A stretch of DNA of 36,712 nt from Clostridia bacterium. GTDB lineage: Bacteria > Bacillota > Clostridia > TANB77 > CAG-508. Location: the NCBI GenBank assembly GCA_045602745.1, contig JAZSCD010000013.1, positions 1 to 36,712 of the forward strand, read 5' to 3'. The first letter of the stretch is position 1, and each line of letters opens with the position of its first letter. Shown here piece after piece: positions 2,872-25,337 of this stretch. The translations under genes were made by a program, and so were the position numbers. The notes below the pieces were generated by a model. That model was not told where the DNA came from. It searched no databases and saw only the letters and a list, made by a program, of their open reading frames with translations.

Positions 2872-2947
2872 GTGCCATTAGCTCAGTTGGTAGAGCATCC
2901 GACTCTTAATCGGCAGGTCCAGAGTTCGAATCTCTGATGGCGCACCA
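2872..2947 (+). tRNA. tRNA-Lys (anticodon CTT)
   Basis: Hand-folded cloverleaf. Acceptor GTGCCAT/ATGGCGC, D arm GCTC-AGTTGGTA-GAGC, anticodon loop C-T-CTT-A-A, T arm CAGAG-TTCGAAT-CTCTG, encoded CCA. Confidence 0.9.
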
Positions 2948-4005: not shown

Positions 4006-4234
4006 TTTTTACCTCCTTATTATTTTATTTATAGTCAAATTATATCATAAGATAAATTTTGTGGAAACAAAATTTAGAAATTTATAATATTTTAATAAAT
4101 TTTTGTTATGATAAAAAGTTATTATAACGAAATTTAAAATTTAATATAGGACTACTCAAGGAAATAAAAATATGGTATAATACTAAAGATTGTGTAAAAA
4201 AATATAGTAAAAGAAAATAGAAGGGGTGATTTTT

Positions 4235-7400: not shown

Positions 7401-8462
7401 TTATATTTCTGGATTATATTTTTTTCTAATTTCTTCTATTTTCTCATAGTCATTATTTAATATATCCAAAAATGCATCAGCACAATTTGGATCAAATTGT
7501 GTACCTTTACATTTTTCTATTTCTTCTTTCACAGTTTCTAAAAACAAAGAATCCCTATAAGTCCTTCTAGAAGTCATAGCATCAAATGCATCTGCTACTG
7601 CAGTTATTCTTGCTAAATAAGGTATATCTAGTCCTTTTAGCCTAGAAGGATAACCATTACCATCAAAACGCTCATGATGATGTTTTACAATAGGAATTAC
7701 ATTTTGAAAAATTGTGGCATTAGATAAAATATGAGAACCTATAGTAGGATGATTTTTAATTTCTGAATATTCATCATCAGTTAATTTACTGTTTTTTAGT
7801 AAAATACTATCAGGAACACCGATTTTACCAATGTCGTGGAACAAACCACCTATTTTTAAAGTATTTATATCTTCGTCTGAAAGATTTAGTTTTTGTCCTA
7901 TTAGAACAGAATATTCGGAAACTCTATCTGAGTGACCTCTTGTATATGTGTCTTTTGCTTCTACTGTAAAACGTAAAGTTTCAATACTTTCCAAATATGC
8001 TTTTTCTAATTTTTCATAAGTATCTTTTAGTTCAATATTTATTTTTTTAATTAAATTCATTTGAGAAATTACTTTTATTCCTGATTCTACAAGTAAAAGC
8101 AGTTGGTCAAATTTGTCACTTTTTTCACAATATCCTTGAATATCTAATCTTCTAATTGTTTCTAATGGAGGAGCCAAATCTTTGTGACCAGTAAGAAGTA
8201 AAATATATAAATTTTTATTAAATTTTCGAATTTCTTCTACTACTTGATCTCCATGAATAGGTGTCATTATAAAATCTAGCAACATTAAGTCAAAATGTTC
8301 TTGTTTAACTCTTTCTATAGCTTCCATAGGATCTGTTATTCCAACAAAATTATAGCCAGCTTTATTAAGAAAAACTTTTAAGGAATCTAAAATTCCAGAT
8401 TCATCATCAACTGCTATTATTTTATATTGAGAATTTTCGTTAGAATATATGTTTTTTCTCAT
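7401..8462 (-). CDS. Response regulator with HD-GYP output domain (putative c-di-GMP phosphodiesterase)
   Basis: REC domain (KIIAVDDE...DLMLLDFIMT, phospho-acceptor Asp context). HD-GYP signatures HDIGK and HHERFDGNGYP. Start moved to ATG 8462, with GGAG 8 nt upstream. Confidence 0.85.
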   Translation of the reverse strand: MRKNIYSNENSQYKIIAVDDESGILDSLKVFLNKAGYNFVGITDPMEAIERVKQEHFDLMLLDFIMTPIHGDQVVEEIRKFNKNLYILLLTGHKDLAPPLETIRRLDIQGYCEKSDKFDQLLLLVESGIKVISQMNLIKKINIELKDTYEKLEKAYLESIETLRFTVEAKDTYTRGHSDRVSEYSVLIGQKLNLSDEDINTLKIGGLFHDIGKIGVPDSILLKNSKLTDDEYSEIKNHPTIGSHILSNATIFQNVIPIVKHHHERFDGNGYPSRLKGLDIPYLARITAVADAFDAMTSRRTYRDSLFLETVKEEIEKCKGTQFDPNCADAFLDILNNDYEKIEEIRKKYNPEI

Positions 8463-8615
8463 AAGCAACACTCCTTTTTACTAACTTAAAAGAATTATAT
8501 GCAAATTATGTAAAAAATGCAATAAAAAAGTAAAAAAAACAAGTAACATATTCACAACTAAGCAGTTTTATGGTATAATCATTCAAAACCAAATTAATTA
8601 TACAATAATAAAGAT

Positions 8616-8645
8616 GTAGGGGTGGGCGATTTTAGTCCGCCCGCG
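8616..8645 (+). repeat. Degenerate GTAG-headed REP-like hairpin
   Basis: GTAGGGGTGGGCGAttttagTCCGCCCgcg, with an imperfect stem. Confidence 0.5.
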
Positions 8646-8696
8646 AAAAGTGAATAGTACAAAATTTGTTTGCAAATTTTGTAGGAGGATGTTGAA

Positions 8697-9603
8697 ATGA
8701 TTTTTAAAGATTATTATAAAATATTAGGGTTAGATACAAATAAAGTAAATAGTGAACAAATAAAAATAGCATTTCGTGAACAAGCAAAAAAATATCATCC
8801 AGATGTGAATGGAGGAAATGCTAGAATAGAAGAAAGATTTAAAGATATAAATGAAGCATATGGAGTATTATCAAATTCTTCTACAAAAAGAAAGTATGAT
8901 AGAATGTGGAACTCATATGTAGCTAAAAAACAAGCAAAACAAGATTATCAAGAAAGTAAAAGAGATAAAGACTCAATATTTAGTGATTTTTTTAATATGT
9001 TTTTTGGAACTCCAATTGAAACAAGGCAAGAAACTAATGTAAAAGAAAAAAAGAGAAACCCTATAAAAGGAGAAAATGTAGAAACAGAAATAAATGTTGG
9101 TATAGAAGATGCATATTATGGAACAGAGAAAAAGATTTCTTTAAGAACTGTTAATCGGTAAGATGAAAACATTTTTAGTAAAAATTCCAGAAGGAATAAG
9201 AGATGGTGAAAAAATAAGATTATTAGGTCAAGGAAAACAAGGGCAAAATGGTGGAAAAAACGGGGATATGTTTATAAAAATAAACATACAAAATAATAAC
9301 AAATTTAAATTACAAGGATATGATGTAGTAACTGATTTGTTTTTAACACCATGGGAAGCGGCTTTAGGAAAAAGAGTAAATATAGATTCAATAGATGATA
9401 CAGTTTCTTTATATGTACCACCAGGAATACAAAGTGGAGAAAAAATAAGAATTGCACAAAAAGGTTATAAAGATGGTAGAGGAAGTAGAGGAGATTTAGT
9501 AGCAGAAGTTAAAACAGTTGTGCCTAAAAAATTAACAGAAGATGAAAAAGAATTGTTTGAAAAACTGAAAAGCATATCAACATTTAATCCAAGAAGCAAA
9601 TAA
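8697..9603 (+). pseudogene. CbpA/DnaJ-like J-domain protein split by a +1 frameshift (extra C at 9156)
   Basis: J domain DYYKILGL...AKKYHPDVN lies in 8697..9161. The DnaJ C-terminal beta domain KTFLVKIPEGIRDGEKIRLLGQG lies in the frame of 9163..9603. The 0-frame reads aat-CGG-TAA. Deleting c9156 gives ...SLRTVNGKMKTFLVK... (about 301 aa, typical CbpA length). Confidence 0.8.
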
Positions 9604-9757
9604 ATTAATAGGGGAGATGTTCCACTTACGGGAGAAAAGATACAAATAAATTATAGGGGAAGGACTTGCTCTGCACAAATGAAAAATATTAAAATTTGAA
9701 TGAGACCAACCTAATCCTTACAAACATAAAAATAGTTCACATAATTTAGAAAAAACG

Positions 9758-9786
9758 TTGACATATAAATTAAAAAAAGGTATAAT
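9758..9786 (+). promoter_or_regulatory. Perfect-consensus sigma-A promoter
   Basis: TTGACA (9758-9763), 17-nt spacer, TATAAT (9781-9786). Confidence 0.6.
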
Positions 9787-9851
9787 TATAAATATGATTG
9801 TACGAACGATAAAATGCATTAAAATATGTAGAAATGAGGTGCTTGAAAAGC

Positions 9852-10376
9852 ATGGATGAATTTATGCAAGGGAAACATTTTAGTATAACAGATCCACAAG
9901 GAGTAAATACAGTAATTTATCAAATCAATAAAACAGAAAAAGAAATGGCCAAGGATTCGCCTAAATACACCGTAGAGAGATTAGACTATATAGAAGAGTT
10001 AGTAGGGGAAAAAAAGAAAAAAACTTTCTATGTAAATGAGCCTAAACCTGATGGAAATGATTTAATAATACTTTCTTTTGGAAATGAGAAAGTTGTTGTT
10101 AATACAGGTGTATTAGACGGAGATATGGTAAAAATTTGTAAAAAACCTATACCTATGAACTTTAGAAGTATTTATAGTGAAGATGAGCAACCGGAAGAAG
10201 AAGTAGAATACACACCAAATTTGAAAAGACCAATTTCCATAATTGATCCAGAAACTACAGAAGAAATAAAGCCAATATTATATTTTGATGAAAAAACAAA
10301 TGAAGTAAAAGGAAAATGTAAACTAAAACCATACAAAAGTTATTTTGCATTTGAAATAAGAGAAATTAATAAATAA
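9852..10376 (+). CDS. Hypothetical protein (about 174 aa)
   Basis: Long ORF downstream of the consensus promoter. GAGGTG at 9835-9840 favours ATG 9852 over the track start 9834. I recognise no motif. Confidence 0.5.
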   Translation: MDEFMQGKHFSITDPQGVNTVIYQINKTEKEMAKDSPKYTVERLDYIEELVGEKKKKTFYVNEPKPDGNDLIILSFGNEKVVVNTGVLDGDMVKICKKPIPMNFRSIYSEDEQPEEEVEYTPNLKRPISIIDPETTEEIKPILYFDEKTNEVKGKCKLKPYKSYFAFEIREINK

Positions 10377-10415
10377 TTTAAGAAAATCGTTCATTTAATT
10401 AAAGGAGGATATAAA

Positions 10416-10670
10416 ATGAATACAGCAGGATACGAAATAGGACTAACAATCCCTGTTCAAGTCGGTAAAGGGAAAATGGAAAAAGGAAAAAATCATACAG
10501 AGGTAACTATAGAAGACGCGAAAGAAAGGGATAAAAAATATAATTTTGTAGGGATAAAGCTTTCAAAAACTACAGAAAAAGATTTTACTCATAAAGCAAA
10601 AGTGAAAGCTGAAATGGCTAAAAGGAAAGCCGCAAATAAAAATATCGGAAGTGGTGAAATGACAATTTAA
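10416..10670 (+). CDS. Hypothetical small Lys-rich protein (84 aa)
   Basis: RBS AAAGGAGGA lies 7 nt upstream of the ATG. I recognise no family. Confidence 0.5.
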   Translation: MNTAGYEIGLTIPVQVGKGKMEKGKNHTEVTIEDAKERDKKYNFVGIKLSKTTEKDFTHKAKVKAEMAKRKAANKNIGSGEMTI

Positions 10671-10698
10671 TATAATACAAATGAAAAGGTGAATAATT

Positions 10699-12649
10699 AT
10701 GGGATATAAAATAAAAAACACTTTAAAAAAGAGTAAAATGGCATTTATAATAGGAATAGCAATATGGATAGCATTATCCATATTGCTTTCTGCGCCTATA
10801 ACAGTTAGTAAAATTGAAACAACTGTAGGTGGAAAAATTAATTTAAACGAGTTTATGAACTGTTTCTTTTCAAATATTTTACAAATAAAAGAAAATTTTT
10901 CAAAAGTTTTTACTTCTGAATATATTAGTACTTTTAGAAAAACAGAGGGATATGTAACTATAGGAGTTTTAATATTTTTTGTTATAGGATTTATAAAATC
11001 AATGCCTAAAAATGAGTATACAGATATTGAGCATGGTTCAAGTGATTGGGCAGATGGAGAACAGTATAGTGTATTAAGTAAAAATAAAGGAATACTTCTT
11101 GCAGAGAAACATTACTTACCAGTAGATAAAAGAGGAAATGTTAATGTTTTAGTTGTAGGACGGATCAGGTTCTGGTAAATCTGCATCATATGTTATACCA
11201 AATGCTTATCAATTATTAGGTTCATATGTTTTTACAGATCCAAAAGGAGAATTATACGATAAAACAGCTGGATATTTAAAAAGTAAAGGTTATGATATAA
11301 AAATATTTAACCTAGTTAATCCAAAAAATAGTGATGGATATAATCCATTAATGCATATACAAAGTGAAATAGATGTTGATGTTATAGCAAATACAATAGT
11401 TAAAGGTCAATCAGATGTGCAAAATCAAGCAGATCCTTATTGGGATGATATGGCTGAAATGTTATTAAAAGCATTGATATATTATTTGCTTGCAACTAGA
11501 CCAGAAGAAGAACAAAACTTAGCAAGTTGTGCAGAACTTGTTAGAGCTGCAAATAGCAATGGAGCGGGAAATTTATTAACAGAACTTATGAATCAATTGC
11601 CATATGATCATCCTGCAAGAATGAATTATAAATCTATTGAAATTGCACCAGAGAAAACATATAGTTCTATACTTTCATCACTTCAATCAAAACTTGGTAA
11701 GTTTGATTCAAAAGATATAGCAGAGCTTACATCAACAAATACTATAGATTTTGAGGAAATTGGTAGTAAAAAGACAGCAGTATATGTAATATCATCAGAT
11801 ACACATGCAGCATACGATTTCTTGCTTACAATATTTTTCTCTCAAATGATACAAAGATTATACGATTTTGCAGATTTAAGTGGTGGAGCACTTCCACAGC
11901 CTACATACTTTATATTAGATGAGTTTGCAAATATAGGTAGAATACCAGATTTTGATAAAAAAATATCAACATCAAGAAGTAGAAAAATTTCATTTAGTGT
12001 TATATTACAAAATTTAGACCAGTTAGAGGCAGTATATGAAAAATCTCATGAAACTATAATTGGTAACTGTGATACAACATTATTTTTGGGAAGTAACTCG
12101 CAGAAAACAGTTGAATATTTTTCCAAAGAATTAGGAGAAAAAACAATAAATAGAGATAGTTGGTCTGTAAGTAAAGATAAGCATATGTGGAGACAAGGAT
12201 ATAATAAATCTGACCAAATTATGGCAAGAGCACTTATGACTCCTGATGAATTGAGAAGATTAGATAATGATTTATGTATTATATTTGAAAAAGGTATAAA
12301 ACCAATAAAAGCACCAAAATATTATTATTTTAAATATGATACTGTAAAACTTGTAAATAAGTTTGCTTGTAGCCATAATGAGATAGACCCAATAGATAGA
12401 GGAAAATGGAGAAAATATAATCCATATAATCCATATGTAGAAGAATTAGATGAAAAAGAGAATACTAAAATAGAAACATTAGATGATTTATTTGAGGATG
12501 AAGATATAATAACTAAAAAAGATGATAATGCACCAGAATTGCCACAAGAAGATATAACTAAAGAAGATGATGTTTTAACTTATGATGTACAAAAAGAATT
12601 AGAAGCAAAATTTGATGAATTATTTGGAGCATTAGAAGATGATGAGTAA
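10699..12649 (+). pseudogene. VirD4/TraG-family type IV coupling protein interrupted inside the Walker A motif (extra C at 11161)
   Basis: N-terminal TM helices. The 0-frame reads ...NVLVVG-CGG-atc-agg-ttc-tgg-TAA. The +1 frame from 11162 reads GSGSGKSASYVIPN... and continues through Walker B TYFILDEFANIG to 12649. Deleting c11161 restores NVLVVGGSGSGKS (about 650 aa). Confidence 0.8.
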
Positions 12650-12657
12650 AAATAAAA

Positions 12658-12690
12658 AACAACTTCTTAAAAAAGAGGTTGTTTTTATTT
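12658..12690 (+). terminator. Rho-independent terminator after the coupling-protein gene
   Basis: aacaacttc-ttaaaaaa-gaggttgtt (9-bp stem with one G-U) followed by tttattt. Confidence 0.65.
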
Positions 12691-12733
12691 TAAAAATTTG
12701 AATCTAGCTCTGGTCGATTAAATTATAAATATT

Positions 12734-14545
12734 TTATTCCAGAGGAATTTCAACAAAGAATGAAGTTCCTTTTCCTTTTTGAGTTTCGTATTTTATATTT
12801 CCGCTAAAGTGTGCTCTAATGTTAGAATAAGACATAAATAATCCAAGGCCTGTTCCATTTTTACCTTTTGTTGTAATCATTTCTTTAAACAATTTATCTT
12901 GAACTTTTTGAGGTAATCCACTGGCAAAATCTTCTATTTTAAAGATTATATTATTTCCATCTTTGTATATCGTAAAGTTTATATTCTCATTCGTTTTTCC
13001 TTTAGATTGATAAGCTTGAATAGCATTTGAAATTATATTATTAATTACTTGAACTAAGCTGTTTATATTTCCTTTAACAACAGTAGAGGTATCTATATTA
13101 GCTTTAGTATTTAAATTAGTTAAACTATTCTTTAATTCATGCTTCATTAAAATATCTACATAGTTTATGAGTTCTCTAACTGTAAATTCACTTGCAGTTT
13201 GTTCTGAAAATGCAACTGCTTGTCCTTTTATTGCAGTAATTACATCAGACATATATGATAAATGCGTTTTGGTTTTTTCTATCCATAATTTCATATCATT
13301 TGCAATTTCGTGATGGTCAGCAACGGTTACTTCAGGGTCCTCTATACTAGAATCATATTCTTTAATTAAATCAGATAAACCTTCTGCAGCACCGGCAATT
13401 GACATTATAGGAGTCTTTAAGTTGTGTGCAATTCCACCAATCATTTGTCCAAGAGATGCTAAACGTTCTTTTTCAACAAGCATATCTTGATTATCTCTAA
13501 TTGTTTGCATATCAAGAGTATGCTGTGTTATATCTTTAAAAAGAATAAGGGTTCCTAAGAAATTTCCTTTCGACTCTATGCGAGTTATTTCTATGTGGAA
13601 ATACTTATCTATTTTATTGAAATATTTTTCTAATGTTTTTATATCATCAGCATCTTTAATTAATTTATTAGTAGTCATATTAAAATTGTCATGTTTCTTA
13701 AACAATTCAAACAACTCTTTATTTCTAACATCGTTAGCTGATACTTTAAATGTTTTTAAAAATGTTTCATTAAAATCAATAATAACATTATCTTCATTAA
13801 CAACTACATAAGAATCTGATATTCTATCGACAACTTTTTGAAGTGCAATAGGTGCCACCTTTAAAAAGTCGAATTTAAATATAGCTAAAGTAAAACATAT
13901 TACTGATACAGAAAATGCAATTGGTGTAGCAAAAACTGTCATGGGTATTACTTTTGCAACTCCTCCCAATACATTTACAAATAAAGGAGCAATAAATCCT
14001 AAAATTATTAATAAAGATTGTTTTGAAAAGAATCCAGAGTTTTTAATAGAGAATTTTAACAATCTAATTATACCTATAAATAGTAAAGCATATGAATAAA
14101 TTGTATGAACAAACATATAAGGACCATTAATAGTGTCAGTAAAAGATTGAGAATATTTTACATAGAACAAATGATGAAAGTTATTTGTCCATAATATTAT
14201 TAATGACAATATAGGTATTATAAATAATAATAAATATGATTTTTTAAATTTAATTTTTGTATCTGTAAAAATTAAGCTTGAAAAAAATATTGAAACAGGT
14301 AAAAAACAAGTACCAATATATATAAAATTTTCAAAAATTATAGCATCAATATCAAATAAATTTGATAAAAGCCATTGACTTAGTACACCTATTGATATAA
14401 TTGATGTACATATCATGTTAATTATAAAAATGTTACGCATTTGACTGTTATTTTTATCTTTTCTTTTAAAAAGATAAATACATAAACTCAAACAAAGTAT
14501 AATAGATGCTAATAGTAACCAAAAATCTAAACTCAAAGAAATCAT
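12734..14545 (-). CDS. Sensor histidine kinase with N-terminal 6-7 TM domain (HisKA_7TM-like), PAS-like linker, HisKA and HATPase_c
   Basis: About 230 aa of TM helices. H-box LGQMIGGIAHNLKTPI. N-box NNIISNAIQAY. G-boxes EDFASGLP and GTGLGL. RBS GAGGGG sits in the 12-nt gap after the NRPS stop. Confidence 0.85.
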   Translation of the reverse strand: MISLSLDFWLLLASIILCLSLCIYLFKRKDKNNSQMRNIFIINMICTSIISIGVLSQWLLSNLFDIDAIIFENFIYIGTCFLPVSIFFSSLIFTDTKIKFKKSYLLLFIIPILSLIILWTNNFHHLFYVKYSQSFTDTINGPYMFVHTIYSYALLFIGIIRLLKFSIKNSGFFSKQSLLIILGFIAPLFVNVLGGVAKVIPMTVFATPIAFSVSVICFTLAIFKFDFLKVAPIALQKVVDRISDSYVVVNEDNVIIDFNETFLKTFKVSANDVRNKELFELFKKHDNFNMTTNKLIKDADDIKTLEKYFNKIDKYFHIEITRIESKGNFLGTLILFKDITQHTLDMQTIRDNQDMLVEKERLASLGQMIGGIAHNLKTPIMSIAGAAEGLSDLIKEYDSSIEDPEVTVADHHEIANDMKLWIEKTKTHLSYMSDVITAIKGQAVAFSEQTASEFTVRELINYVDILMKHELKNSLTNLNTKANIDTSTVVKGNINSLVQVINNIISNAIQAYQSKGKTNENINFTIYKDGNNIIFKIEDFASGLPQKVQDKLFKEMITTKGKNGTGLGLFMSYSNIRAHFSGNIKYETQKGKGTSFFVEIPLE

Positions 14546-14557
14546 TTGTATCCCCTC

Positions 14558-17500
14558 TCATATAAAATTTATTTTTCTTAAGTAATCAATATATCTTATT
14601 ATATATTCTTTATCAATTTTTTTCCACTTAAATCCTAATTTATTTAAATATTTTTCTGTAAAATTACAAATTAATCTAACATTAGATGTATATATTAAAT
14701 TTTTATTTTCATCTAAATCATAGATAATACCAGATAATATATCTTTTCTATCGTTATCTGCAAGAATTCCTGTAAGAATATCTTTCATCATTACATCGTT
14801 AACTGCAAGAAGTTCTAAACTTAAATCATTATTTAAAGTATCCATCAATAACTTAATAGGTAATAATTTAGTATTATAAATATGAAAAACATTACATTTA
14901 CTTTTGTGATTTAATATTTTCATAATTGCATCTGTAGCTAAGTCAACTGGAGTAAGCTCTATAGAATGTGGTAGCAAGTATTTAGGAAATGCATTTATTT
15001 CAATAAATGATTTAATACGTTTCGCGAAAGCATTTTCATCAGCATTCATTTGGAATACACCATCTGAATATCTGTTAGTAATATTACCCATTCTTAATAT
15101 TTGTGCATCTAGACCATTTAGAATTGATTCTAAAACTAAAAGTTCAGCTCTAAACTTAGTTGTAGAATATACTCCTTTAATGTCTTGTCCAACATAAATA
15201 TTTGTTTCTCTAAATATTTTCTTTTTATTAATATTTTCGGATGTTTCTACTATAGTTTCCTCTTTTTCACCATTACCAGAAATACTTATTGTTGATATAT
15301 GCAATAATCTCTTTTTAGTTTTTTTACAAAAATCAATTACATTTTGTGTACCATTAACATTAATTTCTTCGAATTTTTTCTTTATACCAAAATGTTTAAC
15401 TAATGCTCCAGAATTAATAACTGCATCAATATTTTCTGACAACATAGTATAATCTTTGCTTGATAAACCAAGATTTTCTTCTACTATATCTCCATGAATT
15501 ACTTTAATTCTGTTTGAAAATTCTTTTTTATATTTGTCTCCAAAATAAAATTTTAAAGTATCTTTTAAACGTTTATCAATATTAATACTATTTTTAGGTC
15601 TTACTAAACAATAAATTGTTCCCTTATTATTTTTCATAAATGCATCTAAAATATGAGCACCTAAATATCCAGTTGCACCTATTAATAAAACATTTTTTAT
15701 TTTTGCTTTTTTAATTGTTTTTAAATTATCAATAGTATTTCTACTTAAAACTTCTTTTAATTTGTTATAATCATAATTTTTAATAAATTCTTCATCACTG
15801 CGGTTTGATTTTTCAGATAATTCTTTTATTGTAGGATGTGTAAATATATCACTATATTCAAAATCTAGACCATATTTAACTGCTTCTATTTGCATACTGA
15901 TAGCAGCAACTGAGTCTCCTCCTATATCAAAGAAATTATCAGTTATAGATATATCTTCTATTTTTAAGATATTCTTCCATATTTGTAATAGCTTTTCTTC
16001 ATTAGAATTTAATTCTTCTATATTTACTTTACTATTTACAACAGGTTTATTAGGCTCTGGCATAGGAAGAGCTTTTCTATCAATTTTTCTGTTAATTGTA
16101 TATGGCATTTGTTTTAGTTTTACAAAATATGTAGGTACCATATATGGTGGAAGAGCTTTTCTAAGAGTATCTCTAATTAAATTCTCTTCCACATTATTAG
16201 CTGCATAGTAGCCACATAAGAATTCGTTACCATCTATTTCGATTTTATTTACTACTGCAGATGTTACGCCTTCTATATTTAGCATTACGTTTTCAATTTC
16301 ACCAAGCTCAATTCTTAAACCTCTTAATTTTATTTGATGATCTATTCTACCTAAGCATTGAACTTTTCCATCAAATGTCCATCTTCCAATATCACCTGAT
16401 TTATACATTTTTCCTTCGCCAAAAGGATTCCTTAGGAATTTTTCAGCTGTAAGTTCAGGTTTTCCGATATATCCTAGACCTACTTGGATTCCAGAAATAT
16501 ATATTTCTCCAACAACACCAACAGGAACTCTTTTCATGTTTTTATCTAAAATATGAATTTGTGTATTCATTATTGGGGGACCTGTTGTAATTTCTGTTTC
16601 TCCATCTAAATTTTGAACATTAGAAAGTATAGTAATTTCACTAGGGCCATAAATATTGTATATTGTTATATCATCTGCGAGTGCCCTTAAATCTTGAACA
16701 AATTTTTCTGGTAATGGCTCTCCACCGAAAACCATGTTTTTAACTCTAGCTAAAGCTGTATCTGGTTCACGATTATCATAATTAATTTTCATTAAGCTAG
16801 GAGTTACAGTCATTACATCAACATTGCATTTTTTAATTAATGCATCTAATAATTTTGGATTTCTATGTTCAGCATTATTAGCCATTGCAATTTTTAGTCC
16901 ATGTGTTAATGATACTATAATTTCATATACAAATATATCAAAAGGTGTAGATGTTACAGAAGCTATACAATGTTTATTTCCTTCTTTTAAGTAATCTAAT
17001 ACTAAAGTCATTGCTTTAACCATATTTGCAAAACCAACATGGTTTAGCATTGTACCTTTAGGTTTTCCTGTAGAACCAGATGTGTATATTAAATATGATA
17101 AATTTTGTTTATCTATTTTTATATTAGGATTGTTAAAGTTTTTACCATAAATTTCATCAATATTTAAATCTATTTCAATACAGTTTTCTATTGATTCTAC
17201 TCTATCTTTTAATTCTTTTTGAGTTAATACATAACGTGTTTTACTATCTTCTAAATAATATTTTGTTCTTTCAATAGGGTAAGTAGGATCAACATTAAAG
17301 AATGCTGCTCCAGCTTTTAAAATTCCCATCATACATACAATAGTTTCAAAAGAACGATTTGTCATTATACAAACAATGTCATTTGATTTAATACCTTTTT
17401 CAATTAAATGATGTGCTAAGCTATTTGCTTTTTTATTTAATTCTTTGTATGTAAGAGTTTTATCTTCACAAATTATAGCTATATCATTAGGATGATTTTT

Positions 17501-20500
17501 TACTTGTTCTTCAAATATTGAAACAACAGTGTCATCATTAATAGGTCCATCTGTATTGTTAAATTTATCAAGTATAGCAATTTCATCTTTAGTTAAGATT
17601 TCTAAATCTTCAACTGTTGTATCAATGTTTTCAAGCATTTGATTTAAGATAAACATATAATGATTTAAGAAACTTTCTATTGTTTCTCTTTTAAATAAGT
17701 CTGAATTGTATTCCAAATTAAATGTACAAATGTCTGGAACTATTTCCATCCAGATATTAAATTTTGATGTTTTTGTGTCAGCAGTAATTAATTCTAATGT
17801 TGCATCATCGATTTTATATTCATCTTTTTTAGTATTTTGATATGTTAAAACTATATCTAATAAAGATGGATTATTATTTAATTTTTTTGCAACCAATTCA
17901 TAAGGATATGGTTGATTTGAAAGACTAGCCGTTACAGTATCTTGAACTGATTTTAATAAATCAGAAATACTGCTATTAATTTCTATATTTTTTCTTAATA
18001 CTATATTGTTTACAAACATTCCGATCACATCAGAAATTTCTTCAAAATTTCTACCTGCAAATGGACTTGCTACTATTAAATCAGTTTGTGAAGTATATTT
18101 GTATAGCACAACATATAACGCAGTAAGGAATAAGGTATATTCTGAAACATTTAGTGATTTTGCTAAATCTTGTAGTTTCTCAAATATTTCCTTTTGCATA
18201 GCATATGATATTTTATCTCCATTATAGCTTTTTGAATTAGTAGCGGGATAATCATATGGCAAATTAAGTACAGGTATATCTGTATTTGAACATACAGATG
18301 ACCAATACTTATCGTATTCTTTTATTTCTTCACTATTTATATAATTGTTTTCCCAAATAGAATAATCAATGTAATTAAAATCTGATTCTTGTAATTCTTC
18401 ATCATTATATAATTTGCAGAAATCTCTCATTAATATATTTAGAGAAACACCATCAACTATAATATGGTGAGAATCTAATAAAATTAATGTTTTTTTGTTA
18501 TCTAATGCACATACAGATACGCGAAGTAGAGGTGCTTTAGATAAATCAAAAGGTCTTGGAAATTCATTAATAATTTTATTTATATCTTTTTCATGACCAT
18601 TAAATACATCTATGTTTATATCTTTTATATCTAAAACTTCTTGTACTAATTCTTCTCCATTTAGTACGAAGCGAGTTCTAAAACTAGAATGTAATTCTAG
18701 TATTTTTGAAAATGCATTTTTGATTTTACCAATATCTAATAATTTATCTACAAGTAATGCTCCAGAAATATTATATACTAAATTATTTTCAGATACTTTT
18801 TTACTAGAATAATATGTTCTTTTTTGAGCAGAAGATAATGGATAATAAATTTGTTTATCTGCTTTTGTAAGTTTAATATTATTAATTATATTTTCACTAT
18901 TAGCAATTAAATCAGACAAATCTTTAATTACAGGATTTTCTAAAACATCCTTAACAAAGAGTTGCACACTAAATTTACTATAAATCATAGTACATAAATT
19001 TATAGCTGTTAAAGAATCTCCTCCTAGTTCAAAGAAAGAGTCATCAATACTTATATTTTCTATTTCTAATAAATCTTTTAATAGATTAATTAGTAGTTCA
19101 TCCATACTATTTCTAGGTAACAAAATTTCTTTTGACCTTGCTTCGAAATTTGGCATTGGTAGTTTTTTTCTATCAATTTTTCCGTTTACATTATATGGCA
19201 TTTGTTCTAGTCTAACTAAATAGTGAGGTATCATATATTGTGGTAGTTTAGCTCTTAAATAATTTCTTAAAGCAGATTCATCTATATCGTTTTTAGATAA
19301 ATAATAAGCAATAATATATGTGTGAGCTAAATCTTTGTGTGTTATAACTATACAATTTGTTATATTTGGGTAAGAGTGCAAAACTGTTTCAATTTCCTCT
19401 AATTCTATTCTAAACCCATTAACTTTTACTTGAAAATCATTTCTTCCTAAAAAGTGAATTTGTCCATTATTATCTATGTATCCTAAATCTCCTGTTAAAT
19501 ACATAGAGCTATCATTGAAGAATGGATCAGTTATAAATTTTTCTTTGTTATAAGTAGGATTATTTATATAACCATTTCCAACACAATCCCCAGATATGGC
19601 AAGTTGTCCTACTATATTGTTAGGAAGTAAATTATTTCTAGCATCTAGTATATATACACGTGAATTAGAAATAGGTTTTCCAATAGGTGGTTCTGCATCT
19701 GAAATTGATGACTCTACAACAAAAGTTGTAGCTACGTGAGTTTCAGCAGGACCATAGTGATTGTGTATTTTTATATTATTAGAAAGAAGAGTTCTAATTC
19801 CGTTTGTAAGAACTAATTTTTCTCCAGCTGTGATTATATTTTTTACATTGTTAATTAATAATTCTACTGCTTTATCATTATCTGCCAAAAGCTTTAAATA
19901 AGCAGGAGGAATAAATAATGTATCTATAGAATGTTTATCAATATATTCTGATAGTGTTTGAATATTTTTTCTGATATCATCTTTAATTAGAACAAGGGCT
20001 AATCCATTTAATAATGCAGAATATATTTCTTGATAACTTACATCAAAACTCATAGTAGCAAATTGTAAGATACTATGTGCATTATCTAATAAACCTGTTT
20101 TATTTTTTTCAAATATTACAAGGTTAATCATATTTTTATGAGTTATAGTTACTCCTTTTGGTTTTCCGGTTGAACCAGAAGTAAATATTATATATAAATT
20201 ACTATTTGGATTAAAATCTTGTTTTATATTAAACTTACTAGAAAAGCTATTATAATTATTTATAGCTATGTTTATTAAAGATATATCACAATTAATATTT
20301 TTTAAAACAGACATATCTTCATTACCCAATATATAGTTGATAGAAGAGCTAGAAATCATATATTCAATTCTATCGATAGGATAAGTAGGGTCTATTGGAA
20401 CATATGTACAATTTAATTTTAGAATGGCTAAAATTCCAATAATAGAATCGAATGAGCGAGATGTAAGAATTCCTACATTAGTTTTAGAATTTATTCCATT

Positions 20501-22000
20501 ATCCAACAAATAATTAGCTAATTTATTTGCTCTTTCATTTAACTCTCTATATGTTAATTGCTCATTTTCAAAAATAACAGCAACATTATCAGGTGCTTTT
20601 TCTACTTGTTCTTCAAAAAGCTGTGTGATTGTTTTATCTTTTGGATAATCTGCTTTTGTATCATTAAAATCATATAATATTTTTCTTTTTTCATCAGGTG
20701 TAACTATTTCTATTTCGTTTAATTTAATTTCTTTATTTTCTAGAATTTGATTAATTATATGCAAAATTCTAGCATGAATAGAGCAAATATCATCAATAGT
20801 ATATTTGCTGATTAAATAATCATATGCAATATTTATATTTCCAGTATCATTTACATCAAAAAGATGTATATCTATATCATCAGAAATATTGTTGTTTTCA
20901 ACCCATCTAGAAGTATATGGAACTTTAACAGTTTCACTACTAGTTTTTGAGTTTTGATAAGAAATTAATACATTATATAAATTTGGAGTACTATTATTTT
21001 TAACTCTTAAATCTTCTAATAAATATTGATATGGATATTTTTGATGTCTAAACACTTTCAAAAAGTCTGTTGAGATTTTAGAAATAAAATCACCAAATAT
21101 TTCATTATGATTTAAAGATACTTTAAATGGAATAGTACTTATAAACATACCAGGTGTTTTCTTTTCTTTAAAATTTCCTCTGTTTAGAATAGGAGTTCCA
21201 ATAACAAATTCATCTAAACCTGAAACTCTAGATAAATACACAGAAAATACACCCATAAAGAAATTAAAAATAGATGATTTTTTTGTTTTACAAAATTCAT
21301 TTATTAGAGTTATAGTTTCTTTTGGAATAGTAAACATCTTTCTTTTGGATTTACAGCTTATTTCCTTAGTTTCTTGTTTCATACTAGGAAATGTTGCTAC
21401 TTCTGGAATCGTTTCAAACATTTCATTCCAAAAAGCTTTATCTTTATTAAATTTTTCACTATTTAAATATTCATTTTCAGAATGAATATAGTCTATATAT
21501 GAAGGTTGTTCATTTGGAATTTCTTGATTAGTAATTAAAGATTCATAATTTCCCATTATTTGATTACAAATAATACCTGTTGTCCAAGCATCAAAAATTA
21601 AATGATGTGCATTTATTATAAAGCCACCATGTCCATCTGGGAATTTAAATAATTTGAAATCAAAAAGAAAGCTATCTAATGTGTTAAAAGGAATATCACA
21701 TACCTTTCTTTCCAAAGATTTTAAATCTTTATCAGTTTCAACTGATATTAATTCTATATTAAATTCAGTAAAATTATCTACATACTGCATAGCAGTACTA
21801 TCTTTTACTGTGAATTTTAATCTAAAATTATCATTATTTTTTACAGTAAGATTTATTGATTTTTCTAAAGCCTCAAAATCTACTTTTTGTGAAACGATTA
21901 CAGTACCTGTAATATTTTCGATCGACGTCCCTTTATAAAATTGCTCTGTTAGCCATATTGATTTTTGGGGATTCGTTAAAGCGTACATGTTTTTTGACAT
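14558..22000 (-). CDS. Bimodular non-ribosomal peptide synthetase, C-A-T-C-A-T-R (2480 aa)
   Basis: Start set at ATG 22000 (RBS GAGGGTGA). Motifs: C1 HHLIFDAWT (aa 132-140); A1 LTYRELN, FTSGSTGKPKG, NHYGPAE, NGKIDRKKL; T1 GGDSLTA (Ser996 = nt 19013-19015); C2 HHIIVDGVS (aa 1178-1186); A2 LTYKELN, YTSGSTGKPKG, NIYGPSE, NRKIDRKAL; T2 GGDSVAA (Ser2030 = nt 15911-15913); R domain GATGYLGAHIL plus YSTTK. Approximate nt spans: C1 20711-21988, A1 19151-20638, T1 18911-19117, C2 17576-18853, A2 16061-17533, T2 15806-16018, R 14561-15703. Confidence 0.95.
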   Translation of the reverse strand: MSKNMYALTNPQKSIWLTEQFYKGTSIENITGTVIVSQKVDFEALEKSINLTVKNNDNFRLKFTVKDSTAMQYVDNFTEFNIELISVETDKDLKSLERKVCDIPFNTLDSFLFDFKLFKFPDGHGGFIINAHHLIFDAWTTGIICNQIMGNYESLITNQEIPNEQPSYIDYIHSENEYLNSEKFNKDKAFWNEMFETIPEVATFPSMKQETKEISCKSKRKMFTIPKETITLINEFCKTKKSSIFNFFMGVFSVYLSRVSGLDEFVIGTPILNRGNFKEKKTPGMFISTIPFKVSLNHNEIFGDFISKISTDFLKVFRHQKYPYQYLLEDLRVKNNSTPNLYNVLISYQNSKTSSETVKVPYTSRWVENNNISDDIDIHLFDVNDTGNINIAYDYLISKYTIDDICSIHARILHIINQILENKEIKLNEIEIVTPDEKRKILYDFNDTKADYPKDKTITQLFEEQVEKAPDNVAVIFENEQLTYRELNERANKLANYLLDNGINSKTNVGILTSRSFDSIIGILAILKLNCTYVPIDPTYPIDRIEYMISSSSINYILGNEDMSVLKNINCDISLINIAINNYNSFSSKFNIKQDFNPNSNLYIIFTSGSTGKPKGVTITHKNMINLVIFEKNKTGLLDNAHSILQFATMSFDVSYQEIYSALLNGLALVLIKDDIRKNIQTLSEYIDKHSIDTLFIPPAYLKLLADNDKAVELLINNVKNIITAGEKLVLTNGIRTLLSNNIKIHNHYGPAETHVATTFVVESSISDAEPPIGKPISNSRVYILDARNNLLPNNIVGQLAISGDCVGNGYINNPTYNKEKFITDPFFNDSSMYLTGDLGYIDNNGQIHFLGRNDFQVKVNGFRIELEEIETVLHSYPNITNCIVITHKDLAHTYIIAYYLSKNDIDESALRNYLRAKLPQYMIPHYLVRLEQMPYNVNGKIDRKKLPMPNFEARSKEILLPRNSMDELLINLLKDLLEIENISIDDSFFELGGDSLTAINLCTMIYSKFSVQLFVKDVLENPVIKDLSDLIANSENIINNIKLTKADKQIYYPLSSAQKRTYYSSKKVSENNLVYNISGALLVDKLLDIGKIKNAFSKILELHSSFRTRFVLNGEELVQEVLDIKDINIDVFNGHEKDINKIINEFPRPFDLSKAPLLRVSVCALDNKKTLILLDSHHIIVDGVSLNILMRDFCKLYNDEELQESDFNYIDYSIWENNYINSEEIKEYDKYWSSVCSNTDIPVLNLPYDYPATNSKSYNGDKISYAMQKEIFEKLQDLAKSLNVSEYTLFLTALYVVLYKYTSQTDLIVASPFAGRNFEEISDVIGMFVNNIVLRKNIEINSSISDLLKSVQDTVTASLSNQPYPYELVAKKLNNNPSLLDIVLTYQNTKKDEYKIDDATLELITADTKTSKFNIWMEIVPDICTFNLEYNSDLFKRETIESFLNHYMFILNQMLENIDTTVEDLEILTKDEIAILDKFNNTDGPINDDTVVSIFEEQVKNHPNDIAIICEDKTLTYKELNKKANSLAHHLIEKGIKSNDIVCIMTNRSFETIVCMMGILKAGAAFFNVDPTYPIERTKYYLEDSKTRYVLTQKELKDRVESIENCIEIDLNIDEIYGKNFNNPNIKIDKQNLSYLIYTSGSTGKPKGTMLNHVGFANMVKAMTLVLDYLKEGNKHCIASVTSTPFDIFVYEIIVSLTHGLKIAMANNAEHRNPKLLDALIKKCNVDVMTVTPSLMKINYDNREPDTALARVKNMVFGGEPLPEKFVQDLRALADDITIYNIYGPSEITILSNVQNLDGETEITTGPPIMNTQIHILDKNMKRVPVGVVGEIYISGIQVGLGYIGKPELTAEKFLRNPFGEGKMYKSGDIGRWTFDGKVQCLGRIDHQIKLRGLRIELGEIENVMLNIEGVTSAVVNKIEIDGNEFLCGYYAANNVEENLIRDTLRKALPPYMVPTYFVKLKQMPYTINRKIDRKALPMPEPNKPVVNSKVNIEELNSNEEKLLQIWKNILKIEDISITDNFFDIGGDSVAAISMQIEAVKYGLDFEYSDIFTHPTIKELSEKSNRSDEEFIKNYDYNKLKEVLSRNTIDNLKTIKKAKIKNVLLIGATGYLGAHILDAFMKNNKGTIYCLVRPKNSINIDKRLKDTLKFYFGDKYKKEFSNRIKVIHGDIVEENLGLSSKDYTMLSENIDAVINSGALVKHFGIKKKFEEINVNGTQNVIDFCKKTKKRLLHISTISISGNGEKEETIVETSENINKKKIFRETNIYVGQDIKGVYSTTKFRAELLVLESILNGLDAQILRMGNITNRYSDGVFQMNADENAFAKRIKSFIEINAFPKYLLPHSIELTPVDLATDAIMKILNHKSKCNVFHIYNTKLLPIKLLMDTLNNDLSLELLAVNDVMMKDILTGILADNDRKDILSGIIYDLDENKNLIYTSNVRLICNFTEKYLNKLGFKWKKIDKEYIIRYIDYLRKINFI

Positions 22001-22086
22001 ATAATCACCCTCGCTATTTGCAAATTTTATATATTTAATATATCTAATATATCGTAAAATAATTGATAAATCAATAATTCTTCTAT

Positions 22087-22116
22087 ATTGTAACATAAAA
22101 TATAAATTTCTGTAAA
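22087..22116 (-). promoter_or_regulatory. Candidate promoter of the NRPS-kinase operon
   Basis: On the minus strand: TTTACA (22116-22111), 18-nt spacer, TACAAT (22092-22087). This gives a leader of about 80 nt containing the palindrome ATTGAT-tt-ATCAAT. Confidence 0.4.
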
Positions 22117-22177
22117 CAGTTTGATAGAAAGTTATAAAAATAGACAATTTTCGACAATTATGCAAATTTTACAAATC

Positions 22178-22248
22178 GTAGGAGTCGATGCCCACATCGA
22201 CCCGAAAAAACAGATTGATTTCGGGCTGATGTGGGCATCGGTCCCTAT
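22178..22248. repeat. REP-like inverted doublet (second sequence subtype)
   Basis: GTAGGAGTCGATGcccaCATCGACCCG (22178-22204) and, inverted, cgggctgatgtgggcatcggtccctat (22222-22248). About 21/27 identity between arms. 17-bp A-rich spacer. Confidence 0.75.
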
Positions 22249-22337
22249 AACATTTGTAATAAAATTAATTATAAAAAACACGGATTTTCTATGACTAAAA
22301 TAACAAAAAAAGGAAAGTATAATATAGAGGTGGAAAG

Positions 22338-23474
22338 ATGTACGAATACAAAAAAAGGGAAAGCAAATTCAAGAAAGCTATTGGTTTAATTATATTAATG
22401 CTAATTGTTGCATCTGTTAGTATATTTATATACGATATGTATGTAAATATAGATGTGTATTCAAGTGAACAACAAAATCAAAATTCAGGAGCAACTAGAG
22501 TTTCGTATACTCAAGATGTAAAAACAAATTCAAATGATGGTATTACTAACATATTGGAAAACACTATAAAATGTGTAGTTGGTATTTCAAAGATAAAAAA
22601 TACAGGTAATTCAATATTTTTAAACAATAGTACAGAAGCCCTAGGACTTGGAACTGGAATAATAGTTTCAGAGAATGGATATATTTTAACAAATTGGCAT
22701 GTTGCAGGAGATAAATATAGCAGATGCTATATTACACTTGAAAATGGTAAGACTAATGATGGAAATGTAGTATGGGCAGATAAAGATTTGGATTTAGCTA
22801 TTGTTAAAATAAATGGAACTGGATTAAATTGTATAACATTAGGAGATTCAGATGGTATAAAAATTGGACAAAATGCTTATGCAATAGGAAATCCAATTGG
22901 TGTTGAATTTCAAAGAACAGTAACATCAGGTATTATAAGTGGAATTAATAGAACAATAAAAATAGATGAAGAAAATACTTGGGCATATATGGAAGACTTA
23001 ATTCAAACAGATGCAACGATAAATCCAGGAAATAGCGGTGGGCCGCTTATTAATTCAAATGGAGAAGTAATTGGAATTAATACTGTGAAAATAACAGAAG
23101 CAGAAGGTATAGGTTTTGCTGTTCCAATTAATATAGTAAAACCAATAATAGAAAGTTTTAAAAAGAACGGAGAGTTTAATGAGGCATATCTTGGGATTTT
23201 TGCTTATGATAAAAATGTGATTCCATATTTAGATTCAAGTATAGATTTTAATTCAGGAATATATGTAGCACAAATTTCAGCAGATGGACCAAGTTATAAT
23301 TCAAGATTAAGAACAGGAGATATAATAACTAAAATTGATGAGATAGCTATAAATAAAATGAGTGAACTAAGAACATATATATATACTAAAAAAATAGGAG
23401 ATCAAGTAAATCTTACAATATTAAGAAATAATAGGGAGAAAGTTATAAGTATAAAACTGGGAAGAAAAAGTTAA
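22338..23474 (+). CDS. htrA: HtrA/DegP-family serine protease (S1C) with TM anchor and PDZ domain
   Basis: Catalytic triad contexts TNWHV, DLDLAIVKI and GNSGGPL. C-terminal PDZ-like region GDIITKIDE. RBS GAGGTGG. Confidence 0.9.
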   Translation: MYEYKKRESKFKKAIGLIILMLIVASVSIFIYDMYVNIDVYSSEQQNQNSGATRVSYTQDVKTNSNDGITNILENTIKCVVGISKIKNTGNSIFLNNSTEALGLGTGIIVSENGYILTNWHVAGDKYSRCYITLENGKTNDGNVVWADKDLDLAIVKINGTGLNCITLGDSDGIKIGQNAYAIGNPIGVEFQRTVTSGIISGINRTIKIDEENTWAYMEDLIQTDATINPGNSGGPLINSNGEVIGINTVKITEAEGIGFAVPINIVKPIIESFKKNGEFNEAYLGIFAYDKNVIPYLDSSIDFNSGIYVAQISADGPSYNSRLRTGDIITKIDEIAINKMSELRTYIYTKKIGDQVNLTILRNNREKVISIKLGRKS

Positions 23475-23540
23475 TATTTTTATTGCCAACAATTTACTCT
23501 AATGATAGAATTACATTAAGATTTAAAAGGAGGAGTAAAT

Positions 23541-23924
23541 ATGAAAGATAAAAATACAGTATTTTATAAATGCCCAATATGCGAAAACCTTATAGGTTTA
23601 ATAGATGGAGATATTAATCACATGATGTGTTGTGGAAGAAAAATGGAATTATTAGTAGCAAATAGTGAAGATGCAGCAACAGAAAAACATGTTCCAGTTT
23701 ATGAAAAAGTTGAAGATGAAATAGTAGTAAGAGTTGGAGAAGTAGATCACCCAATGGATAAAGACCATTATATAATGTGGATTGCACAAGTCAGTGATAA
23801 TCAAACAACAAGAGTAAGATTATATCCAGAACAAGGAATTGCAGTAAGATTTAAATATATACCAGGTTCAATATTATATGCATATTGCAATAAACATGGA
23901 CTTTGGAAAGCTGATGTGAAATAG
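23541..23924 (+). CDS. dfx: Desulfoferrodoxin (2Fe superoxide reductase)
   Basis: N-terminal desulforedoxin-like CPICEN...CCG. Centre II motifs EKHVPV, HPM and the C-terminal C-N-K-H-G. 127 aa. RBS AGGAGGAG. Confidence 0.9.
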   Translation: MKDKNTVFYKCPICENLIGLIDGDINHMMCCGRKMELLVANSEDAATEKHVPVYEKVEDEIVVRVGEVDHPMDKDHYIMWIAQVSDNQTTRVRLYPEQGIAVRFKYIPGSILYAYCNKHGLWKADVK

Positions 23925-23951
23925 GATTTTGGGGACTGCCCCCAAAATCCT
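23923..23951. terminator. Bidirectional 12-bp-stem hairpin between convergent dfx and the peptidase gene
   Basis: aggattttgggg-actgc-ccccaaaatcct. There is no clean T-run, and it abuts the stop codon of the minus-strand gene. Confidence 0.55.
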
Positions 23952-23952
23952 A

Positions 23953-25227: not shown

Positions 25228-25284
25228 ATAATCACCTATAATAATATATTAATATTAATTAGTTTTTGTGAATTTTAGGAAATA

Positions 25285-25316
25285 TAAAAAATCCCAAATA
25301 AATTTAGGGATTTTTT
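25285..25316. terminator. Bidirectional terminator downstream of the opine-dehydrogenase gene
   Basis: aaaaaatccc-aaataaattta-gggatttttt. Confidence 0.65.
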
Positions 25317-25337
25317 GATGATTGTTTATAAAATATT

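Follow-up and report, generated by a model that had tools for sequence, protein, structure and literature searches.

A peptide synthetase of uncultured gut Clostridia shares a conserved operon with a 7TM sensor kinase and may make the signal that this kinase detects

Introduction

Few biosynthetic genes are as widespread in the human gut as the clusters in which a non-ribosomal peptide synthetase (NRPS) makes a dipeptide aldehyde, and their native role is unsettled. Such clusters of gut Clostridia, for example MIBiG BGC0001686 (N-octanoyl-Met-Phe-H), were reportedly described by Guo et al. 2017 (Cell 168:517). The ruminopeptin pathway of Ruminococcus bromii is said to have been presented by Schneider & Balskus 2018. 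Here we describe an NRPS gene of an uncultured gut Clostridium, located on contig JAZSCD010000013.1 (the window: the whole stretch of DNA that was analysed, 36,712 nt long, with a G+C content of ∼26 %), the conserved operon that it shares with the gene of a membrane-bound sensor kinase, and the joint replacement of its first adenylation domain and the kinase sensor between related loci.

The products of this enzyme class are dipeptide aldehydes, some of them N-acylated; two examples are ruminopeptin, which is an N-acyl Leu-Glu aldehyde, and N-octanoyl-Met-Phe-H, the product of a Clostridium cluster (PMC8518294, PMC12327764, PMC8210680). The synthetase described here is a new member of this known reductase-terminated gut class, and the link to it that an earlier note on the same DNA had drawn is sound. 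Likened by description only, the clusters of Guo et al. 2017 share with it the gut Clostridia as hosts, a bimodular NRPS ending in a reductase and a dipeptide aldehyde as the product, here a predicted one; in contrast to our locus, the accessible literature gives them no conserved 7TM kinase/HD-GYP partner, invariant second adenylation domain (A2) or allele-matched sensor. Ruminopeptin, again compared by description only, is likewise a predicted N-acylated dipeptide aldehyde from the NRPS of a gut commensal, but is N-acyl Leu-Glu-H, whereas here residue 1 would be Pro and the pocket for residue 2 is hydrophobic, with no acidic or basic residue. AusA/PznA, the aureusimine synthetase of Staphylococcus aureus, resembles our enzyme in having a C-A-T module ahead of a terminal T-R (C, condensation; A, adenylation; T, carrier; R, thioester reductase), in a similar reductase (4F6C) and in aldehyde release, which is predicted here. 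It differs in being A-T-C-A-T-R without an N-terminal C domain and in its specificity codes, and our whole NRPS scored 1421.5 bits against the NCBIfam AusA equivalog NF047350, below the cut-off of 2500.

In the agr (AgrD/AgrB/AgrC) and com systems, signal specificity and the membrane sensor of the kinase vary as discrete alleles whilst the flanks are conserved. At our locus the first adenylation domain (A1) and the sensor similarly vary together as alleles within species amid conserved flanking sequence; the putative signal, however, would be NRPS-made and not derived from a ribosomal peptide, AgrB- or ComQ-like processing genes are absent, and a REC-HD-GYP regulator stands in place of a LytTR DNA-binding one. 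The Rpf/diffusible signal factor (DSF) system (RpfF, RpfC, RpfG) offers a further likeness, as there too the gene for the synthase of a small lipophilic signal, here a putative one, lies beside a membrane sensor kinase and a REC-HD-GYP regulator, but our locus has an NRPS instead of a crotonase, a kinase without the receiver and HPt domains of RpfC, and a Gram-positive host. By analogy, the wiring would be DSF/Rpf-like and the population structure agr-like.

Results

In order to define the gene we examined its open reading frame (ORF), which extends from 22165 to 14558 on the minus strand, with a likely start at the ATG at 22000, 7 nt after GAGGGTG, and thus a product of 2480 aa (Table 1). Pfam placed two Condensation, two AMP-binding and two PP-binding domains as well as NAD_binding_4 (residues 2107–2359) on this product, in the order C-A-T-C-A-T-R, and NCBIfam matched it module by module to AusA, MxcG and others, all under equivalog cut-offs. 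Motifs are present throughout, namely HHLIFDA (residues 132–138) in C1, HHIIVDG in C2, GGDS in both T domains, and GATGYLG and YSTTK in R. The single 2480-aa C-A-T-C-A-T-R synthetase of the earlier note, with a C domain from residue ∼5, is therefore borne out by the ORF, its translation, Pfam and the intact serines of the T domains. The gene thus encodes a genuine bimodular NRPS, and its host is a gut Clostridium that has not been cultured.

The kinase gene begins 12 nt past the NRPS stop codon, at a junction (TGA-GAGGGGA-ATG) in which GAGGGGA is the ribosome-binding site, and a scan of this junction returned no terminator-like site. The arrangement is widely shared: the kinase is the same-strand neighbour of the NRPS in 98 of 103 loci, with a median gap of 12 nt (−30 to +60 nt in 92 of the 98), the regulator follows the kinase at a median distance of 116 nt (≤ 230 nt in 63 of 76 loci), and a divergent htrA precedes the NRPS by 105–520 nt in 40 of 55 loci (median 263 nt), trimodular relatives included. 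Moreover, the order htrA / NRPS-kinase-(REC-HD-GYP) persists in 43 %-identical trimodular and 54 %-identical relatives that have different outer flanks. The synthetase and the membrane sensor kinase thus belong to one conserved operon, and the earlier description of the NRPS as an orphan is contradicted by a cassette found in ∼100 loci. The kinase relatives among the matches listed, at identities of at least 62 %, were all members of this family.

Homologs of the NRPS number in the thousands, more than 100 of them being relatives of the same length that are 53–95 % identical, and trimodular relatives of 3500 aa are 41–46 % identical. Genome matches came from Clostridium sp. CAG:452 and from uncultured Clostridia of human, Hadza, rabbit and other animal guts, and a metagenome scan added 80 further contigs, many of them titled human gut. 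For the analysis of co-variation we used a set of 89 full synthetase/kinase pairs. Between relatives whose flanking sequences are 85–100 % identical, the A1 core (aa ∼500–940) can be only 33–41 % identical and carry different codes; in all, there are 19 A1 codes in 12 domain clusters. Some of these are Pro-like, others resemble the codes for Gly (DILQLGVVW), Val (DAFWLGGTF) or Thr (DFWNIGMVH), and several are unassigned. As Pro-first is one of at least 12 A1 alleles, Pro-specific chemistry would not be the defining feature of the system.

A single pair of loci illustrates how the variation is distributed. The NRPS DNA of L001 (Clostridium sp. CAG:452, Pro allele) and L002 (code DIFQTAGVF) is 98–100 % identical save for two blocks that are 3.9 kb apart: the A1 core (52–56 %), and the last ∼170 codons of R together with the 7TM region of the kinase (61–73 %). 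Region-wise comparison likewise showed that the 7TM domain (aa 1–232) departs from the pattern of the backbone. The A1 alleles on the L001/L002 backbone (97–99 % identical) number four, namely Pro, DIFQTAGVF, Thr-like and Val-like, as against three alleles of the sensor, since the Thr-like and Val-like forms have a sensor in common (89 %). Conversely, L012 and L002 share alleles on different backbones, with A1 78 % and 7TM 80 % identical, yet T1-C2 only 62 % and PAS 50 %. HtrA was considered as a co-varying partner and rejected, being uniformly 92–95 % identical between L001 and L002; neither HtrA nor the regulator shows co-variation with A1.

The same association was visible across the whole set. 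Among backbones ≥ 95 % identical, pairs with the same A1 had 7TM domains that were 99.2 ± 0.7 % identical (n=113), as against 60.4 ± 7.6 % for pairs with different A1 (n=17); at ≥ 85 % backbone identity the 2 × 2 table of A1 against 7TM read 127 / 6 / 31 / 3. Different A1 domains with the same sensor were limited to Thr-like versus Val-like (twice) and DAQFLGGIC versus DVCYLGGIC, so that two of the three kinds of mismatch involve Thr-like and Val-like codes, the residues being isosteric. Partial Mantel tests, in which the other regions were controlled for, gave r=0.39 for 7TM against A1 (0.37 in a non-redundant set) and r=0.44 for 7TM against the adjoining T2-R (the R C-terminus), whereas C1, T1-C2, A2, PAS and the catalytic core each gave ≤ 0.10 (PAS, 0.05). 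As with pherotypes, the signal-specifying element and the kinase sensor thus vary together within species, with the exceptions listed here and below. This co-switching of A1 and the 7TM sensor suggests that the product has a role as ligand of a receptor, besides or in place of protease inhibition.

Several further observations concern the same sequences. The C-terminal, putative substrate-binding subdomain of R (L001 16950–17500, corresponding to ∼14558–15070 of the window) lies in the second of the blocks in which the Pro and non-Pro loci L001 and L002 diverge; elsewhere it tracks A1 inconsistently, the window being 94–95 % identical to L012 and 76–82 % identical to Gly-like alleles. When L001 and L002 were compared over locus coordinates 8000–25500, NRPS DNA outside the swapped blocks was 99–100 % identical, and htrA, the catalytic part of the kinase and the downstream genes were only 90–96 % identical, a difference that suggests that the backbone of the synthetase itself has recently spread or been homogenised. 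Three loci, L006, L017 and L018, have an interrupted or shortened NRPS frame, with 2333, 824 and 1897 aa in the longest piece, possibly through assembly error or pseudogenisation.

In contrast to A1, the second adenylation domain is nearly constant, with the code DIYTVGI(I/V)L in 88 of the 89 pairs. In sliding windows its protein identity is 85–100 % where that of C1, the least conserved domain, is 30–60 %, and by domain it is 86–100 % where that of C1 is 40–70 %. Four-fold-site identity, however, is alike in all NRPS regions (for example, 54–58 % between the window and L001); this normal divergence points to purifying selection on A2, and recent gene conversion was rejected as the source of its conservation, its four-fold sites being as diverged as those elsewhere. 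In some relatives A2-T2-R has also been replaced (47 % and 37 % identity; code DIYQVAGYY in L011), so that the constant end of the product would have been exchanged in some lineages. Other relatives have three modules (Gly-like, DIFQTAGVF, Gly-like). All of these exchanged or enlarged loci, L011, L023 and L024, retain the htrA / kinase / HD-GYP context.

Specificity codes were read by alignment to the GrsA segment, a procedure that reproduces DAWTIAAIC for GrsA, and gave A1 the code DVQFIAHVA(K) and A2 the code DIYTVGIIL(K). The first agrees with the D-V-Q-F-I-A-H-V-A-K reported before, except that position 278 is F only in the ungapped GrsA alignment and I in the register of GrsB1/TycB1, which is offset by one residue; the proline call is independent of this register and stands with either residue. 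The A1 pocket segment scored 93 bits against GrsB1 and 88 bits against TycB1, both of which are proline-activating, compared with 38 bits against GrsA-Phe, and A1 read as DVQ(F/I)IAHVAK can be set beside the reference proline codes, which we take to be DVQF/LIAHVVK. The code and these closest matches confirm A1 as a proline-type adenylation domain, the substrate that had been predicted for it. For A2, the code was the same as that read previously and, again in keeping with the note, matched nothing familiar: its pocket segment had no match above 39 bits among solved A domains, and DIYTVGIILK fits nothing solved. As this pocket code has no charged residue, the substrate of A2 is predicted to be a hydrophobic amino acid.

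Full-length alignment of the R domain gave E=6e-52 with the carrier protein–reductase (PCP-R) of Mru_0351 (6VTJ) and E=3e-38 with the AusA reductase (4F6C). The Tyr of YSTTK aligned with the catalytic Tyr of AusA-R (YTRSK) and of 6VTJ (YVCSK), and the triad Thr2237/Tyr2278/Lys2282 was invariant in the 11 diverse homologs compared. On these alignments the reductase is intact and AusA-like; the SDR-type (short-chain dehydrogenase/reductase) domain, of the extended kind, that had been recognized from the glycine-rich NAD(P)H motif GATGYLG and from YSTTK, and whose catalytic Tyr and Lys called for a proper alignment, has thereby been substantiated. Mru_0351 is the closest solved reductase and also comes from a gut/rumen anaerobe, Methanobrevibacter ruminantium, but is part of a much larger archaeal NRPS (PMC8024701). 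The similarity of R to the aldehyde-forming AusA-R (135 bits) over MxaA-R (101 bits) is only a hint on release type, as the extent of reduction by R domains, to aldehyde or to alcohol, is unreadable from sequence (PMC8024701). With these qualifications, the product of the synthetase is probably a capped Pro-X dipeptide aldehyde.

The capping step would fall to C1. Its HHxxxD(A/S) motif has Ala or Ser for the usual Gly throughout the family, so that the A of HHLIFDA, which had been correctly picked out in the earlier note, is no local defect. Across 11 homologs with overall identities of 53–73 %, neither His133 nor Asp137 varies, and C1 is kept at full length in every listed homolog, down to 43 % identity. 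Typing was by score ranking against solved structures: the best match of C1 was TycC6 (LCL) with 106 bits, followed by RzmA-Cs (64 bits) and CDA-C1 (48 bits), whilst C2 scored 235 bits against TycC6, with RzmA-Cs and CDA-C1 below the listing cut-off of E=1e-8. On this ranking C1 is divergent and far less LCL-like than C2, and it may lean towards the starter type. An upstream carrier domain or a second NRPS gene beside C1 was absent from both the window and related loci. With its start at residue ∼5 and without a second synthetase gene in the vicinity, C1 would need a free-standing donor or be idle; N-capping by C1 is nevertheless plausible, as this N-terminal C domain keeps its catalytic His and Asp.

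Table 1. Features of the window and the basis on which each was assigned
Feature	Coordinates	Strand	Basis
tRNA gene, after VanW/G5-domain protein gene	2872-2944		Rfam, 67 bits
CorA	4226-5176		Scan of ORFs ≥ 80 aa
Response regulator, REC + HD-GYP	7401..8471	-	Pfam Response_reg + HD_5; motifs HDIGK ... HHERFDGNGYP in translation
∼4.2-kb insertion between kinase and regulator	8500..12700	+	Pfam on ORFs
Histidine kinase: HisKA_7TM sensor (aa 1-232 = nt 13850-14545), PAS, HisKA, HATPase	12734..14545	-	Pfam
NRPS coding sequence, 2480 aa, C-A-T-C-A-T-R	14558..22000	-	ORF, translation, Pfam and NCBIfam domains
Thioester reductase R, aa ∼2104-2480	14561..15691	-	NAD_binding_4; GATGYLG, Thr2237/Tyr2278/Lys2282; 6VTJ and AusA-R alignments
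T2 carrier domain, aa ∼1999-2064, limits approximate	15809..16006	-	Second PP-binding stretch; GGDS with Ser2030 invariant
A2 adenylation domain, aa ∼1496-1978, family-invariant	16067..17515	-	Code alignment (DIYTVGIILK), domain identity
C2 condensation domain, aa 1051-1473, LCL-like	17582..18850	-	Pfam; HHIIVDG; 235 bits to TycC6 C domain
T1 carrier domain, aa 969-1032	18905..19096	-	PP-binding match, GGDS
A1 adenylation domain, proline-type, aa ∼452-947; swappable block = core aa ∼500-940	19160..20647	-	Code DVQFIAHVAK
C1, N-terminal condensation domain, aa ∼5-440	20681..21988	-	Pfam; HHLIFDA at 132-138; His133 and Asp137 invariant in 11 diverse homologs
Promoter-like site, TTTACA, 18 nt, TG-TACAAT; ∼87 nt before NRPS start codon	22087..22116	-	Consensus scan only
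HtrA-type serine protease, membrane anchor + PDZ, divergent from NRPS	22338..23474	+	Trypsin_2 + PDZ; His/Asp/Ser motifs
Tetrahydrofolate (THF) riboswitch, upstream of Mur-ligase-family gene	28671-28771		Rfam scan, 75 bits
Mur-ligase-family gene, possibly FolC-like, followed by ECF-type transporter genes	29093-30652		Behind THF riboswitch
ECF/ABC-type transporter components	30745-32062		Scan of ORFs ≥ 80 aa
Major facilitator superfamily (MFS) transporter	32153-33427		Scan of ORFs ≥ 80 aa

The remainder of the window was surveyed by a scan of ORFs ≥ 80 aa, amongst which no phosphopantetheinyl transferase (PPTase), MbtH, thioesterase or acyl ligase was found. This agrees with the earlier list of missing functions as far as these four are concerned; the list had also included transporters, which do exist in the window (Table 1), although none adjoins the NRPS. 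An ABC-F protein gene is also encoded. Beyond htrA, the minus strand carries three genes at 23953–27382. Their products are an M14 carboxypeptidase that has peptidoglycan-binding and LysM domains, an oxidoreductase resembling octopine dehydrogenase, and an ATP-grasp enzyme; L021, too, has an M14 peptidase near the cassette. The insertion between kinase and regulator encodes a TraG/VirD4-like coupling protein without its N-terminus (432 aa), three small ORFs without a Pfam match, and a DnaJ split in two (J-domain ORF 8697–9161, DnaJ_C ORF 9163–9603). It was found only in the window and, at 63–94 % protein identity to it, in L001, L002, L006, L011 and L012, and the kinase and regulator are adjacent in other lineages; from its gene content the insertion looks like the remnant of a conjugative element.

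No riboswitch precedes the NRPS according to the Rfam scan, the sole matches of which in the window were the THF riboswitch and the tRNA elsewhere. The htrA–NRPS intergenic region does contain a GC-rich, near-perfect 90-nt hairpin (22170–22250; −49 kcal/mol, z = −8.8), the core of which, CGATGCCCACATC, recurs at 33453–33465 within a terminator-like hairpin after the MFS gene. This hairpin was considered as a part of the cassette and rejected, being absent from all related loci.

Discussion

We consider the case evenly balanced that the NRPS, the 7TM kinase and the REC-HD-GYP regulator are one signalling cassette, in which an acyl-dipeptide aldehyde is sensed by its own kinase. From the domains, synthesis would begin with priming of the carrier domains by a PPTase encoded elsewhere and loading of L-proline by A1; C1 would add an acyl cap from the acyl-CoA or acyl-ACP pool, C2 would couple Pro to the family-invariant hydrophobic amino acid supplied by A2, and the reductase would free an N-acyl-Pro-X aldehyde, a cyclised form being conceivable as an alternative signal. 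It is from the conserved operon and the co-switching that we infer the product to be a ligand for the adjacent 7TM kinase: the 7TM domain of the cognate kinase may detect the lipophilic product in the membrane. As output, the kinase would govern the HD-GYP regulator, presumably a cyclic-di-GMP phosphodiesterase, as does RpfG in the DSF system. Residue 2 would thus be the constant part of the signal and residue 1 the variable, group-defining part, such that strains may be divided into groups of differing specificity, much as in the agr or com pherotypes, with the window representing a Pro allele with its own sensor allele. Inhibition of proteases by the aldehyde may coexist with signalling. The wider proposal, that uncultured Clostridia of human and animal guts possess an NRPS-made autoinducer, with swaps of A1 and sensor splitting species into specificity groups and with an HD-GYP output, is one that we advance tentatively and with doubt slightly prevailing.

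A number of points weigh against this proposal. Everything beyond the domain calls is inference from sequence. The pairs compared are phylogenetically non-independent, by which the Mantel tests overstate significance, and clearly independent co-switch events are few, roughly 4 to 6. Sensors that have diverged although A1 is the same occur only among Pro alleles (the P0001/P0002 sensors are 73 % identical), and in the clade of the window, at the level of whole domains, a single broad type of 7TM sensor accompanies Pro-, Gly- and Val-like alleles alike (67–82 % identity), on which account a one-to-one mapping of A1 code to sensor type was rejected. The kinase could instead sense a cue that is correlated with A1, for example a free amino acid. 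Furthermore, the regulator is without a DNA-binding domain, so that no autoinduction loop is evident, and the top solved match of C1 is an LCL and not a starter domain, which leaves N-acylation not secured.

This last point bears on an alternative in which C1 is silent or merely structural. A free Pro-X aldehyde would then cyclise through the proline nitrogen to a bicyclic imine/enamine, the Gly, Val and Thr alleles would yield dihydropyrazinones, and the heterocycle would be the active compound, much as A-T-C-A-T-R enzymes such as AusA yield pyrazinones by aldehyde cyclisation (PMC8210680). That C1 is the least conserved domain, lacks the usual Gly, which Ala or Ser replaces, and scores best against an LCL domain is in keeping with such a role; its retention at full length in all listed homologs, its invariant His133 and Asp137 in diverse members and its closer approach to the solved starter domains RzmA-Cs and CDA-C1 than is seen for C2 are not, and we think this rather unlikely. 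The locus may otherwise be a protease-inhibitor factory, which secretes an N-acyl-Pro-X aldehyde to block host or microbial proteases, with A1 tuning P2 and with the two-component system being regulatory or unrelated. The enzyme class is known for protease-inhibiting dipeptide aldehydes (PMC8518294, PMC12327764, PMC8210680), a fixed C-terminal P1 and a variable P2 residue would suit inhibitor logic, and a conserved, divergent HtrA-type serine protease lies next door. HtrA does not co-vary, however, and inhibition leaves unexplained why A1 and the sensor are replaced jointly whilst the 3.9 kb between them stay 98–100 % identical. As an account of the locus it is unlikely, although by no means far-fetched, and being compatible with signalling it is no exclusive alternative to it.

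The co-variation itself could be an artefact of linkage, with A1 and 7TM being hypervariable islands that are associated through old haplotypes or long recombination tracts, and with a kinase that senses an unrelated cue such as envelope stress, together with htrA. In Firmicutes, htrA is often under the control of a nearby two-component system, for example CssRS. In addition, the two blocks are merely ∼4 kb apart, 7TM also correlates with the adjoining R C-terminus, and the sensor in the clade of the window is unsorted by Pro, Gly or Val code. Against this, the DNA between the blocks is 98–100 % identical across haplotypes and tracks the backbone of the species, not the type of allele, which indicates that recombination separates the blocks; mismatched pairs are nonetheless nearly absent. 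The PAS domain beside 7TM is unassociated with it, and the exceptions concentrate on chemically similar residues. We therefore regard linkage as quite improbable as the explanation.

In the accessible literature, which lacked the two primary papers on the class, such that a prior mention is possible, coupling of these synthetases to a receptor is not described. Should the proposed cassette be real, it would be a non-ribosomal counterpart of the agr/com pherotypes with an HD-GYP output, and some of the 'dipeptide aldehyde' clusters of the gut would primarily be signalling devices, for which a conserved, allele-matched receptor beside the synthetase would offer a candidate target for the class. 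The locus also represents a natural NRPS-engineering experiment, in that the whole A1 core has been exchanged whilst C1, C2, A2 and R remained 98–100 % identical, and so shows junctions that are tolerant of swaps. For the organisms themselves, the finding would, if true, reveal a strain-level social structure in bacteria that have never been cultured.

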